DNA of 58,033 nucleotides from a virus (Duplodnaviria; Caudoviricetes), in the IMG/VR virus record IMGVR_UViG_3300032223_002716, positions 1-58,033 of that record; one strand, written 5' to 3'. Both the position numbers and the translations under genes were made by a program. The notes under the pieces were generated by a model, which was not told where the DNA came from, did not search any database, and worked only from the letters and a program-made list of their open reading frames with translations. How positions within the stretch are numbered: position 1 is the stretch's first letter; every line of letters begins with the position of its first letter. Shown here one piece after another: positions 10,380-20,892 of the stretch.

Positions 10380-12077
10380 TTACGCAACAGTTTCTTGAAC
10401 TAATTTTGAATAATTATTTATTTTTTCTCTAATCTCAGTCAGAGTCGTAGTTTTAACTAAGTCACCATTTTTGTAAACAGTAGTTAATAAACCATTTTCC
10501 TCTAAATCACGAGAACATTTATCTTTAAGAGCATATGTTAAACTATCTTTAGCGTAAACATATAAGTAACCTCTTGCTGATTTTTTGGTACCATCATCAG
10601 TTACTGGGTCTTTGAAGATATCACGGTCAACACCATTAACAACTACGTGAGTAGCTTTAACTGCACCACCTTGGTTATCTCTTGTTGCATAACCCATAGA
10701 GTAAGAACCGATACCTAATACAACGTTAGTAGATGCGAAACCTTTTGCAGCTAATCTAGTACAAATAGCATCAGCTCTATCTAATGTGATTGAATCACCA
10801 TAGATTGCACCGATATGAGAATCTAATAATTTGTAACCTTGACCATTAGTTGTGCCACCAAATGTATTCCATAACAATTCGATTACACCAACATATTCTG
10901 GTTTACCTTCAACTTCTTCAGCATCGATATATAATTCATCAACATAATAATATTGTTTATCATAACGATTCCAAGTAGTGTCTTCAGTTAATTTGTAATA
11001 TGTACCATTAACATTAACAATACGAGTTGTATCGATAGTGTATTCATCTTCACCATGAACTGTAGACTCATATAATTCATTTTTGAAGTCATGCTTAGCT
11101 TGGTCTAATGAAGTATAATTTAAAGTAACCGAACCACATAAGATGTCAACTGGGTCACCAGAGTCTGGGCGTAATACTAATTTACCATCACGAGAAAGAA
11201 TTTCTTCTTTAAGTTCAGTAACGTATTCAGTACAAACTTTCCATAAGTCAAATGAATCAGATACTACTGATAAGATACCAGTTGGGTATTGTTGCATCAA
11301 TCTTCTGAAAGCACCAATCTCATCTTCTTTACCGTATGCAGTCATAACAGCATGTTCAGAAGCTGGAACACTGAAACCTACATTCTTAGTGTTGTAGTAA
11401 TAGTTTGCAGCTAATAATGCTGGGATTGTATCAGTACCAGAGAATGAAGTTAAGAACCCTAAACCAGAACTAATTGCTGACTCTGGGTGTTGCATTCCTC
11501 TGAATGAGAAATCATGTCCTTGGAAATCAACGAATCCTAAGTTTTCTTTATCAGTTTTTCTAGCATGTGATAATAAAATGTTTTTATAACCATAAGCTAA
11601 TGAAGCTGAGTGAACTGGCTTCCAAATCAAAGAAGAAATCAATGTTTCTAAGAAGTTAGGTAACCAAAAGAAATCTGGATGAGTATTCTTAATTGTGAAT
11701 ACTGGGATTTTCTCATCAACGATAGTTCCTTCGTCTAACGCTTTAATCTCAATAGGTAAATAACCTAAATTGTGTAATGCTTCGAAGTGAGATACATCAT
11801 AATCAGTCCCTAAATATGATGATAAGTATTCTTTAGCTTCACCACAAACTTCAGCTTTAGGTCTAGCAAAGAAATCATTAGCATACATGTCATGGATTGA
11901 CTTAACTGTAAATTGCACACCAGCAACTACAATTTTTTTAGCTTGTTTAGGCATATACTTCACATTTCTTAATGTGTAATTCGAATATACCTCAGTTGTA
12001 CCCTCTGGATACATCGCATGGTGACTAGTTTTATAACCATCTGTCATCAATAGCGGATTTTGTCTGTAACTATTCAT
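10380..12077 (-). CDS. nadV: Nicotinamide phosphoribosyltransferase family (Namat-like)
   Basis: TDGYKTSH, HDFSFRG, PASEHAVM, SVVSDSFD, RPDSGDP, IYGDSIT, KKSARG. Confidence 0.9.
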   Translation of the reverse strand: MNSYRQNPLLMTDGYKTSHHAMYPEGTTEVYSNYTLRNVKYMPKQAKKIVVAGVQFTVKSIHDMYANDFFARPKAEVCGEAKEYLSSYLGTDYDVSHFEALHNLGYLPIEIKALDEGTIVDEKIPVFTIKNTHPDFFWLPNFLETLISSLIWKPVHSASLAYGYKNILLSHARKTDKENLGFVDFQGHDFSFRGMQHPESAISSGLGFLTSFSGTDTIPALLAANYYYNTKNVGFSVPASEHAVMTAYGKEDEIGAFRRLMQQYPTGILSVVSDSFDLWKVCTEYVTELKEEILSRDGKLVLRPDSGDPVDILCGSVTLNYTSLDQAKHDFKNELYESTVHGEDEYTIDTTRIVNVNGTYYKLTEDTTWNRYDKQYYYVDELYIDAEEVEGKPEYVGVIELLWNTFGGTTNGQGYKLLDSHIGAIYGDSITLDRADAICTRLAAKGFASTNVVLGIGSYSMGYATRDNQGGAVKATHVVVNGVDRDIFKDPVTDDGTKKSARGYLYVYAKDSLTYALKDKCSRDLEENGLLTTVYKNGDLVKTTTLTEIREKINNYSKLVQETVA

Positions 12078-16179: not shown

Positions 16180-16383
16180 TTATTTTTCCATATCGGAGTG
16201 ATTCTCAATTAAGAATCTTTTGGCTTGAATAATTTGATGGTATAATACCCAATTAAAATTTCCGTCTCCGTTTTTAGTCCACCATACGACCATATCCATG
16301 TTATTAATTGAATTGTTAATCGGTGATGTTTGAATTTCTTCTGGTGTAATTGTTGTCATATTTTTATTATTTAAGTTAAACAT
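16180..16383 (-). CDS. Hypothetical protein
   Basis: ORF downstream of promoter at 16388-16395. Confidence 0.55.
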   Translation of the reverse strand: MFNLNNKNMTTITPEEIQTSPINNSINNMDMVVWWTKNGDGNFNWVLYHQIIQAKRFLIENHSDMEK

Positions 16384-16446
16384 AGTACAAATATATGTAT
16401 AATATAATCAATAAACAAATTTTTTAAAGATTAAATTAAAAAAAAG

Positions 16447-16520
16447 TGACCTCAGAAGGATTCTAACCTTCACTCTACGCATTAGAAGTGCGTTGCTTTA
16501 TACGATTAAGCTATGAGGCC
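16447..16520 (-). tRNA. tRNA-Arg(UCU)
   Basis: GGCCTCA/TGAGGTC acceptor; ACGCA-CTTCTAA-TGCGT; GAAGG-TTAGAAT-CCTTC (atypical T loop). Confidence 0.85.
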
Positions 16521-16526
16521 AAGTTT

Positions 16527-16734
16527 CCCCACCTTGAGATTACTGGTGAGTAGTTACATCGGTTTCTTCCTAATTCAAAAAACCTGCTGGGCATCCCCTA
16601 TGAAAAAAGTCAAACTACTTTGGTAACCGTGTTATAGGCCATTATTCCAAAGACTGCAACCTCAGTTGTATGCAGTTACACTAACCTATTGTTAAATAAG
16701 TCTTAGGTCAAAGACTACTGAGTACCCCTTACTC
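16527..16734 (-). ncRNA. Unidentified multi-hairpin RNA (~210 nt)
   Basis: GAGTA/TACTC, AGTCTT/AAGACT, ACTGCA/TGCAGT, CTTTGG/CCAAAG, GTAGTT/AACTAC, CTCACC/GGTGGG stems; GC-richer than the surrounding DNA; no ORF in the track. Confidence 0.6.
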
Positions 16735-16738
16735 ATTG

Positions 16739-16812
16739 CTCTACCCAAGGGACTCGAACCCCCAGCCCTTCGGCACCAGCCGATGTGCAAACCAATTTAC
16801 ACCATAAGCAGA
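16739..16812 (-). ncRNA. tRNA-like RNA with a 4-nt anticodon loop
   Basis: D arm GTGT..GCAC, TCGGC-TGGT-GCCGA, GGGGG-TTCGAGT-CCCTT, G-U-rich acceptor stem. Confidence 0.65.
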
Positions 16813-16909
16813 GAATCAAGAATTATCATCAGAAATTAGTGGTACCAAATCTCTTTAAGCTATATGATTGATATTCTTGTTAGGGTTGGGTTAATTACTC
16901 CCACCTTTG

Positions 16910-16982
16910 ATAACATGAGTAGATTCGAACTACTGACCCCTACATTAAAATAGTAGTGCTCTACCAACTGAGCTACATGTCA
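16910..16982 (-). tRNA. tRNA-Lys(UUU) with atypical anticodon arm
   Basis: TGACATG TA GCTCAGTTGGTAGAGC A CTACT-ATTTTAA-TGTAG GGGTC AGTAG-TTCGAAT-CTACT CATGTTA. Confidence 0.8.
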
Positions 16983-17006
16983 TTCCTTCTTCTTTGCAAA
17001 GAAGAA

Positions 17007-17167
17007 GATTAATGGTAATAGTCTTTATCAGGAATCTGGGGTTTGCTTTTTACACAAATGCTTCACACACCATTAGAGAGTTGGAAGTAATGCGACTTCT
17101 ATCCTTAGCTGTGTACCCTTGCGACACGTCTCTCCACGTCTGACTATTTACGCTTTTTCCATTAACC
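17007..17167 (-). ncRNA. Unidentified structured RNA (~160 nt)
   Basis: Closing helix TTAATGG..AATAGTC / GACTATT.CCATTAA; inner ACGT/ACGT and GAAGT/ACTTC hairpins. Confidence 0.55.
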
Positions 17168-17181
17168 AATAATAAATAAGT

Positions 17182-17482
17182 AACTTGATAAAGAAGGGAC
17201 ATAGCTAAAGTTAAAAATAAAACTAAAACCAAAGACCTCCCTCTACTCAAAGGCAAAATCAAAATCTAAGTCTTGTTTTGCTACCCAATTGTACCTATTA
17301 GGTTAACTTGTGTAGCCATTAGAGACAAGCTCAGTTTTTATAAATTTGTAGAAAGAGCGGATTATGGTAGACTCCTTTCGGAATCGGCTTTTATATTTTA
17401 ATTAGACCGCTTGTGGCAGTCAAATTAGTCATGTATATCAAACATATATAATATATAGAAGTTAATCCTACTCTATCAAGTT
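17182..17482 (-). ncRNA. Unidentified ~300-nt structured RNA with hexamer-periodic U-rich tracts
   Basis: Closing AACTTGATA/TATCAAGTT; GATTCC-GAAA-GGAGTC; CTCTTTCTAC/GTAGAGGGAG; NNYTTT repeats. Confidence 0.6.
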
Positions 17483-17527
17483 TAAATAATGGTGGTATCA
17501 ACTTGTGTTTAACCACCATTAACCTTA

Positions 17528-18442
17528 TTAATTCAATTGAGCTAAATAAGTATCAATCACATCTTGAAATCTTGAGTCAATATTGATTCTTAGTGAAGCA
17601 ATTTCACCAATTTCAGTTTGACGTTGTAACTCAAGGTCTTGACTCAACTTACTTAATTCAGCTTGGTATGCTGTGTATTCTTTATGGTATTGGTTGTTTA
17701 ACACTTCGTTAGTTGCGTTAACTTTAGCAAAACCATCTGAATTATGTCTAGCGATACGAGCATTCTCAGCAGTAGTTAAATCCTTAACCTTAGCTTTGAA
17801 GTAATTCACTCGCTGTTCATACTGACGGTGTTTTGCAGCCAATTCATTATGAATAGTTAGCAATTGTTCATTAGTATGATGAACTGTTACCGTTAAAGGT
17901 GTTTTCTTACCTTGCTCAACTTCAATCCACTCTAAAGTTTTGATTGATGGTAATTCTTTTCTAAGATTATCCAATGGACCATTCTTATGAATGAATTGAC
18001 CGATGTGAGCAGCATAAGCTTCAGCTTCAGTGTACTCATTGATTTCGTTTGAAGTCAATTGAGACCAACCAAAATCTTCACCAACCTCATCGATTGGTTC
18101 GAAATGTTCCAATTTAGGTCTAGCTGGAGCAACTACGTCAACGTCAATACCTCTGTAACGAGCTTCTCTGATTAAAATATCTTTTGCTTTGATATTTTCC
18201 ATCAAGAACGCTTGAGTTGCATGCAACTTAGCTTTCTCCAAAAGCAATTCAGTTAAATTACTAGGTACTGGTTTACCAACAGTCTCAATATAAGTTTGCT
18301 CACCTATTTTAAGTTGTTTCTCAACGTTGTTGATACCATTTAACTCAGCAGCAATATCAGTTGCTCTTTGATTACACAAATTTGAAATTGATTGTGCTTG
18401 TGACAAGGATAAACCTTTAGTCGATAACGAATGTTTCTTCAT
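17528..18442 (-). CDS. Long coiled-coil/helical protein of unknown function
   Basis: 304 aa, helical heptad pattern, own TAGATTTG promoter at 18476-18483. Confidence 0.85.
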   Translation of the reverse strand: MKKHSLSTKGLSLSQAQSISNLCNQRATDIAAELNGINNVEKQLKIGEQTYIETVGKPVPSNLTELLLEKAKLHATQAFLMENIKAKDILIREARYRGIDVDVVAPARPKLEHFEPIDEVGEDFGWSQLTSNEINEYTEAEAYAAHIGQFIHKNGPLDNLRKELPSIKTLEWIEVEQGKKTPLTVTVHHTNEQLLTIHNELAAKHRQYEQRVNYFKAKVKDLTTAENARIARHNSDGFAKVNATNEVLNNQYHKEYTAYQAELSKLSQDLELQRQTEIGEIASLRINIDSRFQDVIDTYLAQLN

Positions 18443-20083: not shown

Positions 20084-20536
20084 TTATACTGTATGTTCAA
20101 TGTTTACTCTTATACATGTTTGAGGTTGAGCCTCATTCATTAAGAAATTATTAATATAACCCATCATATTTCCAGAACCAATTGGGTTAGCAGAATGCAC
20201 CACCACTTCTGGGAACTTTATAGGGTAATTCTTCTTATCTAAGCGATTCATATTTACTCTCTTAGGGTTTGTATCGTAGAAGTGATTGATAATCCATTTG
20301 ACGCAGTCTAATCCAGTCTTTTCAGTAATATTATCATAATTCAATTCATAGTTTGGTGAAACATTTCTAAAATACTCAGTCATAGCTGTATCACCTAAAT
20401 CGTGGTCCAATGAAATTAAATTAATATTGGATAAACCCAATTCTAAAACTTTTTTTACGAACTCATCATAGTTTCTAACTATAATCCAATCATTAGCGAC
20501 TGGTGTTCTCACATCATCTAAATAAATCTTATTCAT
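20084..20536 (-). CDS. Cyclic-phosphate-processing receiver-like domain protein
   Basis: IYLDDVRTP, ISLDHDLG, TGLDC, VHSANPIG. Confidence 0.8.
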   Translation of the reverse strand: MNKIYLDDVRTPVANDWIIVRNYDEFVKKVLELGLSNINLISLDHDLGDTAMTEYFRNVSPNYELNYDNITEKTGLDCVKWIINHFYDTNPKRVNMNRLDKKNYPIKFPEVVVHSANPIGSGNMMGYINNFLMNEAQPQTCIRVNIEHTV

Positions 20537-20541
20537 ACTTT

Positions 20542-20892
20542 TTAATATTTATAAACTGCAACGTTTATTTCTTTTTTATTCGCTAAATCAATCATATGTT
20601 GCGTACCTTTTGATTCACCATCATGAAACGCTATAAGTAAATCAGCATAATCAGCCATTTGACCATTTCTAATATAACCAGCGGCCTTACCATGTTCATC
20701 CCAGTTAGCTGGAAACTCTTTAATTTTATAACCCCTATCATTAGCATATCTTTCACCTAATTTATCAGCACCTCTTGCAGTTCCACTAACAATTTCTACT
20801 TCTTCCTCTGGCTCACCAATTACGTAATCACAGAATTTACATAGGACTTCATAATCGTTGAATCCTCTACTACCAGCAATAATCACTTTCAT
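20542..20892 (-). CDS. SLOG/YspA-like (DUF2493) protein
   Basis: IIAGSRGF, VSGTARGAD, AGYIRNGQMA, SKGTQHMI. Confidence 0.85.
   Translation of the reverse strand: MKVIIAGSRGFNDYEVLCKFCDYVIGEPEEEVEIVSGTARGADKLGERYANDRGYKIKEFPANWDEHGKAAGYIRNGQMADYADLLIAFHDGESKGTQHMIDLANKKEINVAVYKY

Follow-up and report, generated by a model that had tools for sequence, protein, structure and literature searches.

Among the RNAs described from or near phage transfer RNA (tRNA) regions, the closest counterparts of the elements studied here are RNAC and RNAD of phage T4 and the larger RNAs GOLLD and ROOL. RNAC and RNAD are small stable RNAs of the tRNA region whose roles are given as unknown in a passage of one study (PMC3014915), and which a passage of another classes as late RNAs validated by Northern blot (PMC9697503). 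Extracts from two reports present GOLLD and ROOL as large, ornate, pseudoknotted RNAs of phages and prophages, of unknown function and lying 'often near tRNA islands' (bioRxiv 10.1101/2024.12.08.627333; PMC5737381), and the former adds that tRNAs sometimes occur within the linker of GOLLD (bioRxiv 10.1101/2024.12.08.627333). Here, we analyze an island of an uncultured phage represented by the 58,033-base IMG/VR virus record IMGVR_UViG_3300032223_002716 (the window, that is, the whole stretch of DNA analyzed), where tRNA-Lys, tRNA-Arg and a tRNA-like element (E) are interspersed with three structured RNAs, which we call A, B, and F, and with a spacer (D). B and F are modules that occupy the position of a tRNA in the arrays of many phages, and the island is probably a small unit of the tRNA-array type from which tRNA processing releases structured non-coding RNAs.

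In tRNA punctuation, as known from animal mitochondria, from MALAT1-mascRNA and from the spacer RNAs of bacterial tRNA operons, tRNA or tRNA-like folds are the cutting marks of RNase P and RNase Z, and the released pieces are messenger RNAs (mRNAs), ribosomal RNAs, a long nuclear RNA, or short unstructured sponges. B and F differ from these pieces in being compact, pseudoknotted, and shuffled between arrays as modules. In T4, RNAC and RNAD are encoded immediately after tRNA-Arg, and their processing involves RNase P. Like RNAC and RNAD (the 'species 1 and 2' RNAs), the RNAs of the island are encoded within a phage tRNA cluster and on the strand of the tRNAs, and the tRNA-Arg(UCU) of the window has 88.9% identity over 63 nucleotides (nt) with its counterpart in over 200 records of T4-type coliphages, the phages that share it being otherwise unrelated at the DNA level. 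Covariance models of F, B, and A (R1, R2, and R3, respectively) have no match in the 5-kilobase (kb) tRNA region of the T4-type phage RB51 (L197), which by the T4 map should include RNAC and RNAD, although the RB51 record does not annotate them.

GOLLD was first seen in lake metagenomes, and DNA of the window is likewise present in metagenomes of lake water. GOLLD and ROOL measure about 580-800 nt, as against 135-220 nt for A, B, and F, and the passages of the reports cited above do not ascribe to either of them the exact framing by tRNAs on both sides that characterizes B and F. A, B, and F share a setting with RNAC/RNAD and GOLLD/ROOL, but neither sequence nor fold. A full-text literature search, based on matching words rather than sequences in a limited collection, returned no description of such tRNA-flanked structured phage RNAs.

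Three RNA families with conserved structures

Relatives of the island were collected through the 304-amino-acid (304-aa) protein encoded directly upstream of it, which gave 155 confirmed viral-contig stretches, on contigs of up to 434 kb. The set retained from these comprises 80 loci, most of which have the 304-aa gene directly downstream of a same-strand array of 10-22 tRNAs. A blastn comparison with the island splits the latter into modules. Applied to plain MAFFT alignments, RNAalifold retrieved some of the helices but not all, and full structures were drawn by hand and then tested against a control in which pairing partners were slid by 1-3 columns, after which 33-55% of the alignment cells were paired. 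This comparison shows A, B, and F to be conserved RNA structures read from the minus strand. The strand follows from frequent G-U pairs, for example UG in 38 of 39 rows at one pair of F, and GU in 46 of 47 at one pair of B.

The hand-drawn fold of F comprises ten helices, two pseudoknots among them. Over 39 distinct rows, 34 of 48 pairs change on both sides, 92.5% of the cells are paired (33-52% with slid partners), and the covariation score is 0.353 (at most 0.079 with slid partners), a value that none of 500 shuffles reached. The length of F is also well kept (216-227 nt in 24 of the 26 sequences measured), and across distant phages a 27-nt block at its 3' end is nearly invariant, as is its 3' hairpin (CUCACC-AGUAAUCUCAA-GGUGGG). 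R1 returned 52 matches.

B, for which R2 returned 66 full-length matches, has eight helices including a pseudoknot. Its termini pair with each other (P1, 9 base pairs (bp) in the window) and are followed by P2; the hairpin loop GGAGAG pairs with an invariant CUCUCU downstream; and there are four further helices. The terminal helix joins both ends of the RNA, and 10 of its 11 pairs covary. In total, 26 of 43 pairs change on both sides among 47 distinct rows, with 95.9% of the cells paired against 33-52% for slid partners, and a score of 0.391 (slid partners at most 0.094; reached by 0 of 500 shuffles). B also contains a long single-stranded stretch that is nearly invariant across distant phages (GUGGAGAGACGU..CGCAAGGGUAC).

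The core of A consists of a 10-bp long-range helix (P1), a 3-bp hairpin, a helix P2, and a variable hairpin. Here, 23 of 24 pairs change on both sides among 76 distinct rows, with 95.1% of the cells paired (38-55% when slid), and a score of 0.504 against at most 0.132, again unmatched in 500 shuffles. P1 varies freely in sequence yet remains paired, with matched one-base insertions and deletions (indels): its strands are CUCUUUCUAC/GUAGAGGGAG in the window, and, for example, CUUCCUUAC/GUAAGGAAG or CUUCUGUUAC/GUAACGGAAG elsewhere. An alignment-free test of P1 gave a mean of -14.5 kcal/mol for cognate strands, as compared to -11.2 for non-cognate ones. A simple all-against-all covariation scan of A was too noisy past P1 and P2.

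A covariance search of the spacers, a check named along with the original prediction made from the letters of the window, found no Rfam family in A, B, or F. A scan of the window at gathering scores gave nothing but tRNAs, and ROOL, riboswitches, 6S RNA, and RNase P RNA are among the families without a match. Against the 4,227 families of Rfam 15, positions 16200-17800 of the window gave only tRNA and, in A, B, and F, chance matches at E>=1 (search at E<=10), and representatives of B (L134, L146), F (L089, L116), and A (L022) gave tRNA-clan matches only (E<=1). Known self-cleaving ribozyme families had no match in the window (E<=10) or in representative members (E<=1). GOLLD (RF02032, model of the conserved 3' domain, 150-bit threshold) is also absent from the 58-kb window, although the same model finds it in the relative L007, and ARAGORN called no transfer-messenger RNA in the window. 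When the island was compared by blastn with 50,697 phage records, the tRNAs alone matched, and A, B, and F had no match. Exact-pattern scans of 185,579 prokaryotes (one genome per species), run for B and F but not for A, gave no match for F; the 19 matches to the B pattern were discarded as chance 17-mers, none being confirmed by R2.

This one small island holds three structured RNA families that are new to Rfam 15, each supported by dozens of different sequences. RNAs that are complex, pseudoknotted, and rich in invariant unpaired bases are seldom encountered in bacteria and phages, and those known from earlier work have often proved to be ribozymes, ligand sensors, or RNA machines. For annotators, the island is a warning that gaps in phage tRNA arrays are not empty; and the question why phage tRNA islands attract RNAs such as RNAC/RNAD, GOLLD, and ROOL becomes directly testable on small and tractable RNAs.

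B and F fill tRNA positions in the arrays of many phages

Three close relatives of the window, L003, L020, and L044, are 94-97% identical to it here apart from B: blastn shows a stretch of 161 nt corresponding to B to be precisely missing at this site, and the same B-less junction occurs in a contig from an RNA library. In more distant relatives, the core of B lies between tRNA-Arg(acg) and tRNA-Arg(tct), two genes that are 5 nt apart in the absence of B and about 160 nt apart in its presence. Scanning viral contigs with a 19-nt core pattern yielded 65 B loci, where ARAGORN calls an abutting tRNA on the upstream side of 45 and on the downstream side of 54; 40 are flanked on both sides. The upstream tRNA ends 28-35 nt before the core, that is 0-2 nt before the first helix, and the downstream one begins 18-27 nt past the last conserved block; a T-arm motif is moreover present upstream of B in 10 of the 20 loci that lack a called upstream tRNA. 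The flanking pairs include Arg>Arg, Leu>Arg, Cys>Trp, Met>Glu, and ?>His.

A similar picture is obtained for F, with 49 loci in viral contigs of 8-195 kb, retrieved with a pattern of the 27-nt 3' block. A tRNA for Ile, Arg, Ala, Gly, Leu, Ser, or Asp follows this block after 3-10 nt in 26 of them (ARAGORN). On the upstream side, a called tRNA abuts the 5' block in 13, and a T-arm motif is found within 32 nt in 33. In the window, L007, and L074, F starts 0-2 nt past the 3' end of a tRNA or tRNA-like element and stops at the next tRNA.

The tRNAs that abut B and F are of varied identity (Arg, Leu, Cys, Trp, Met, Glu, His, Ile, Ala, Gly, Ser, Asp, Thr, and Gln), and the boundaries of the two RNAs coincide with tRNA ends. 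The comparison with related phages that had been proposed for the spacers therefore comes out positive for B and F: both recur between tRNA genes in other phage contigs, and ARAGORN calls and T-arm motifs place their ends at tRNA boundaries in relatives. B and F are modules that fill a 'tRNA slot', following the rule that they stand where a tRNA would stand in the array.

Several phages have an insert of about 35-200 nt in the anticodon loop of the tRNA that immediately precedes F (L007:5250-5526; L089:663-769). The L007 insert resembles a group I intron by eye, with acceptor strands GCACCUG/CAGGUGU; Rfam gave no intron match at E<=0.1.

We also considered F as the 5' half of GOLLD, a candidate rejected because 30 of 33 F-bearing records lack GOLLD, including a complete 89-kb phage that carries F alone, without GOLLD or the 304-aa gene. 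GOLLD is found in the three others, 0.8-11 kb from F. One of them is the relative L007 (58% protein identity), where GOLLD (RF02032, 306 bits) lies at L007:6534-6948, 0.8 kb downstream of F, and is preceded by RNA A, the intron-bearing tRNA, F, and a class II tRNA; in the two other records, GOLLD is 8-11 kb from F. A tie of F to A or to the 304-aa gene was likewise rejected, the gene being present in only 3 of the 33 F-bearing records, so that a 6-nt complementarity between the invariant loop of F and the CUGAGAU of A is not general. Other phages with F are represented in the samples of three metatranscriptome libraries, whose contigs match only the invariant 3' block of F (16523-16565; summed depths 13-86) and run into different flanks, including the 5' half of a class II tRNA.

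RNA A accompanies the 304-aa gene

A behaves differently from B and F in its surroundings. R3 was built from 20 sequences and run on 88 sources, giving 82 matches, every one just 3' of the 304-aa gene, and none in the six sources that lack this gene. An independent scan with 14-mers returned at least 118 stretches; among the 80 loci examined, all 23 that are A-like have the 304-aa gene directly upstream, while 53 are chance matches with neither A nor the gene. Our best guess for A is that it more likely acts together with the 304-aa protein or on its mRNA. This protein has no match to a Pfam or PHROG family. Its AlphaFold model is good (pLDDT 85.8) and gives no Foldseek match at E<=0.001, the top VIA-align Z being 6.7, to generic helical proteins.

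Hexamers of the form NNNUUG stand on either side of the 3' strand of P1, three before it (present in 43, 46, and 47 of 47 sequences) and up to four after it (45, 34, 24, and 31 of 47). They could be a platform for an oligomeric RNA-binding protein. In the window, seven hexamers ending in UUG (or UUA/UAG) surround the 3' strand of P1 at 17183-17272 on the minus strand.

Layout of the island

The island is an open reading frame (ORF)-poor stretch (16384-17527) bounded by the 304-aa gene (17528-18442) and a 67-aa ORF (16180-16383), which are both encoded on the minus strand. Its G+C content (0.32-0.43) exceeds that of most surrounding DNA. All of its parts lie on the minus strand, and coordinates are given accordingly (Table 1).

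Table 1. Features of the island in the order of the minus strand, with window coordinates.
Feature	Position	Strand	Description
Hairpin after the 304-aa stop codon	17488-17520	minus	Stem AATGGTGG/CCACCATT, conserved 17-nt loop
Promoter-like site TTGATA-N18-TATATT	17450-17479	minus	Sigma-70-like; 10/12 consensus; kept in L003, L044, L004
Second promoter-like site TTGACT-N17-TAAAAT	17423-17395	minus	Overlaps hairpin 17405-17421
Two small hairpins ahead of A	17405-17421; 17370-17385 (GAAA loop)	minus	Compensatory changes in L003, L044
RNA A	17177-17362; core 17228-17360	minus	Conservation to ~17177; model R3, 112.9 bits
RNA B	17005-17167	minus	Model R2, 110.9 bits, full length
22-bp palindrome, hairpin	16986-17007	minus	Self-match on opposite strand; ends 3 nt before tRNA-Lys
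tRNA-Lys, anticodon UUU	16910-16982	minus	ARAGORN; Rfam tRNA 60.8 bits; no encoded CCA
Spacer D ('hairpin block')	16812-16909	minus	Weak local hairpins only
Element E, tRNA-like	16740-16811	minus	RF00005 26.4 bits, gathering score 29
RNA F, 219 nt	16521-16739	minus	Model R1, 293.5 bits; ends at first base of tRNA-Arg
tRNA-Arg, anticodon UCU	16447-16520	minus	ARAGORN; Rfam tRNA 70.3 bits; no encoded CCA
T8 run	16438-16445	minus	Directly after tRNA-Arg; likely transcript end

The layout given by the original prediction proves correct nearly to the base when traced with ARAGORN, Rfam, R1-R3, and self-matching. Both tRNAs named there are called by ARAGORN and score above the gathering threshold of RF00005 (29 bits), and by ARAGORN and Rfam they are the only tRNAs of the whole window. 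What had been described as a 160-nt and a 210-nt RNA are families B and F, the palindrome is recovered as a match of the sequence to its own opposite strand, and the announced 300-nt RNA turns out to be family A preceded by three small hairpins, in which close relatives show compensatory changes. In L004, the stem of the first of these hairpins becomes GGGGGTGG/TCACCCCC with the loop unchanged, and in relatives a GC-rich hairpin of different sequence stands at the same place ahead of A. The palindrome is retained in L003 and L044, which both lack B.

The 'hairpin block' is the one part that did not hold up as a structure. D has a fold z-score of -1.24, 21 of 200 shuffles fold equally well, and we discarded it as a structured RNA. 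Its 39-nt core was absent, by exact search, from all other fetched loci, and blastn matches to the stretch among these loci are confined to L003, L020, and L044. Contigs from RNA libraries share a piece of 39-71 nt of D with the window.

The tRNA-like RNA that had been noticed ahead of F is a real, sub-threshold element, found by a permissive Rfam scan. E retains acceptor, D, and T arms and has a 4-nt loop instead of the 7-nt anticodon loop. It does not pass as a tRNA by RF00005 (sub-threshold score; three letters against six in the model), nor is it called by ARAGORN. It stops 1 nt ahead of F and is conserved in close relatives only, while in other phages a real tRNA stands at the same place before F. 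As its arms are kept, its decoding ability is lost, and a real tRNA takes its place elsewhere, we read E as a tRNA without decoding function in which the arms for processing enzymes would be preserved, that is a tRNA-shaped handle rather than a decoding tRNA. It may be likened to a handle of the mascRNA kind.

The closest relatives differ from the window and from each other by whole modules, the turnover of the island proceeding cassette by cassette. L003 and L020 lack B, and L004 retains A only, while L044 (857-1500) has an additional tRNA-Ala right after tRNA-Lys and a plain terminator in place of tRNA-Arg.

A processing model and its alternatives

The original prediction reported no TAnnTTTG promoter and no U-tailed terminator inside the island. 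The second statement holds, as none is found on the minus strand within it. Concerning the first, one TAnnTTTG match does exist at 17439-17446, but the nearest relatives L003 and L044 have not retained it. Nor does the window as a whole show an enrichment of the motif (113 occurrences against 100.1 +/- 9.7 expected; 11 of 100 shuffles reach 113), and a Bacteroidota-type promoter for the island was therefore rejected. The sole hint of such a promoter near the island is a match at 16388-16395 on the minus strand (TATATTTG), which L003 and L044 share and which precedes the start codon (ATG) of the next ORF by 4 nt. The sigma-70-like site at 17450-17479 (Table 1) is the candidate start of the transcript of the island. 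At the other end, L044 has a canonical hairpin (TTCCACA..TGTGGAA) and the same T8 run in place of tRNA-Arg, which marks the spot after tRNA-Arg as a terminator. The promoter-like head, the terminator-like end, and the lack of a terminator in between would fit a single transcript. All parts of the island are on one strand, and contigs from four metatranscriptome libraries span much of it, bridging A and tRNA-Lys, A and B, and F and tRNA-Arg; the parts they leave uncovered and their depths carry no expression information.

A single transcript would then run from the promoter-like site at about 17450-17479 to the T8 run after tRNA-Arg. Cleavage by RNase P at the 5' end of each tRNA would create the 3' end of A (with or without B) at tRNA-Lys and that of F at tRNA-Arg, while a 3' tRNA endonuclease, predicted to be of the RNase Z type since the tRNAs have no encoded CCA, would cut after the acceptor stem of each tRNA or tRNA-like element and create the 5' ends of D and F, with E persisting as the processing handle for the latter. 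The expected products are A(+B) ending in the palindrome hairpin, tRNA-Lys, D, E, F, and tRNA-Arg. The released RNAs would be shielded by paired termini in the case of B, or by terminal hairpins (the palindrome, and the 3' hairpin of F), and would be produced in step with the tRNAs. In the window, F has both of its ends at tRNA ends, A+B its 3' side by way of the palindrome, and D its 5' end; A and B, for their part, do not start at a tRNA end. Release of B and F by tRNA processing is thus partly supported, by comparative anatomy, and on this basis we consider it probable that the island works as a tRNA-array-type unit. Of the tRNA punctuation originally proposed, the part that stands is that B and F end at tRNA ends, and the part that does not concerns A, which is not bounded by tRNAs, and B in the window, which lacks an upstream tRNA.

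Several observations weigh against such processing, or against its extension to the whole island. In relatives, a canonical terminator hairpin of its own follows A, which is never bounded by tRNAs; it may accordingly represent an element of the 3' untranslated region (3'-UTR) or a small RNA in its own right instead of a punctuated one. As B is preceded in the window by A and not by a tRNA, its 5' end cannot here stem from tRNA 3' processing. An ARAGORN call is missing at 23 of 49 downstream and 36 of 49 upstream junctions of F, although some of the uncalled tRNAs probably bear introns. The promoter scan is not enriched (12 sites against 11.7 expected from shuffles), and the inner site at 17423-17395 could start a separate transcript. 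The contigs from RNA libraries are blind to start, end, strand, and level, and may include DNA. Finally, the covariation counts come from alignments fitted to hand-drawn structures, which biases them towards those structures.

An altogether different view of B and F would be that they are selfish mobile inserts homing into the junctions of tRNA genes, with a fold that serves their own spread or excision, for example by self-cleavage or self-circularization. The precise absence of B (161 nt) from three relatives that are otherwise 94-97% identical, the occurrence of both RNAs between many different tRNA pairs, the pairing of the ends of B, which brings the two junctions close together, and the modularity of the island, with its extra tRNA-Ala and missing tRNA-Arg in L044 and its lone A in L004, would all agree with this. 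We nevertheless find it quite unlikely, as no endonuclease, integrase, or reverse transcriptase adjoins B or F in the loci read, there are no target-site duplications and no terminal repeats apart from the RNA helix, R1 and R2 match only once each in the 58-kb window, and no known self-cleaving ribozyme family is matched; moreover, recombination between conserved tRNA arms, a form of cassette shuffling, would explain the mosaic as well. It is very doubtful, too, that the spacers act in cis only, as folding insulators, enhancers of tRNA processing, or leaders that are degraded afterwards. They are indeed confined to the inside or the immediate vicinity of tRNA arrays, with linkers as short as those between tRNAs, and E is kept next to F despite its lack of decoding ability; but most tRNA pairs of the same arrays are separated by 4-10 nt without any such element, the long, nearly invariant single-stranded stretches exceed what an insulator needs, and the RNA is constant while the neighboring tRNAs change.

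The terminator that follows A in relatives, the two promoter-like sites ahead of it, and its position 3' of the 304-aa gene in 23 of 23 A-like scan loci and 82 of 82 R3 matches make A the best fit for another reading, in which the RNAs are independent small-RNA genes or 3'-UTR elements with their own promoter or terminator, and tRNA processing is not involved. For the island as a whole, this is very improbable: with 0-2 nt between a tRNA and the start of B or F, and a few nt between their end and the following tRNA, there is no room for a promoter or terminator, and no terminator-like site is found on the minus strand inside the island. Hardly credible, in turn, is that the spacers are decayed tRNA genes or short protein-coding genes, even if E is a decayed tRNA and the island is overlapped by small ORFs (32-70 aa). 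For A, B, and F, this reading is refuted by the tRNA model, which has no match in them at E<=10, and by covarying folds of 5-10 helices with pseudoknots, unlike a cloverleaf. The small ORFs are not conserved in relatives (a 42-aa ORF loses its ATG in L004, and a 70-aa ORF crosses the B indel), and the alignments are full of 1-2-nt indels, from which we conclude that A, B, and F are not coding.

Keeping to release by tRNA processing as the preferred reading, our best guess, by analogy with what is suspected for other phage RNAs of tRNA islands, is that the RNAs may act in trans on translation or tRNA metabolism, or against a tRNA-directed host defense, during infection. More speculatively, and on balance unlikely as a joint proposal, B and F would be new functional RNA classes occupying the tRNA slot, and A would be the RNA partner of the 304-aa protein. 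B and F would then be made, excised, and perhaps recognized like tRNAs, with the stacked terminal helices of B mimicking the acceptor/T stack for RNase P, and would serve in infection as catalysts or as RNAs binding tRNAs or the ribosome. They would be, for example, self-cleaving modules that trim the ends of neighboring tRNAs without host enzymes (the gene for a cyclic-phosphate-processing receiver domain 2.5 kb away may be mentioned here), or decoys for host defense nucleases that cut tRNAs. The seven NNNUUG hexamers of A would, under the same proposal, be the platform of an oligomeric RNA-binding protein.

Genomic neighborhood

CheckV estimates the completeness of the window record at 22%, which makes it a fragment of a phage genome of about a quarter megabase. 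Its genes include those of a portal protein, a large terminase, an endolysin, and a nicotinamide phosphoribosyltransferase. The last lies 5 kb from the island, while on the opposite side, at 2.5 kb, are the cyclic-phosphate-processing receiver domain (PF20274, 73 bits) and a protein of the YspA/SLOG family (PF10686); the two gene regions are 10380-12077 and 20084-20892. Themes of RNA-end healing and of nicotinamide adenine dinucleotide are in this way represented beside a tRNA island.

In some relatives, a suppressor-type tRNA with anticodon UUA lies just upstream of the 304-aa gene (L007:3849-3926, L034:3677-3754, L038:3677-3754, and L077:3252-3326), and a tRNA with anticodon CUA occurs in three F loci (L117, L118, and L123). 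An in-frame stop interrupts the homologue of the 304-aa gene in L013 (L013:4001-4912). Some members of this phage group may translate a stop codon as sense.

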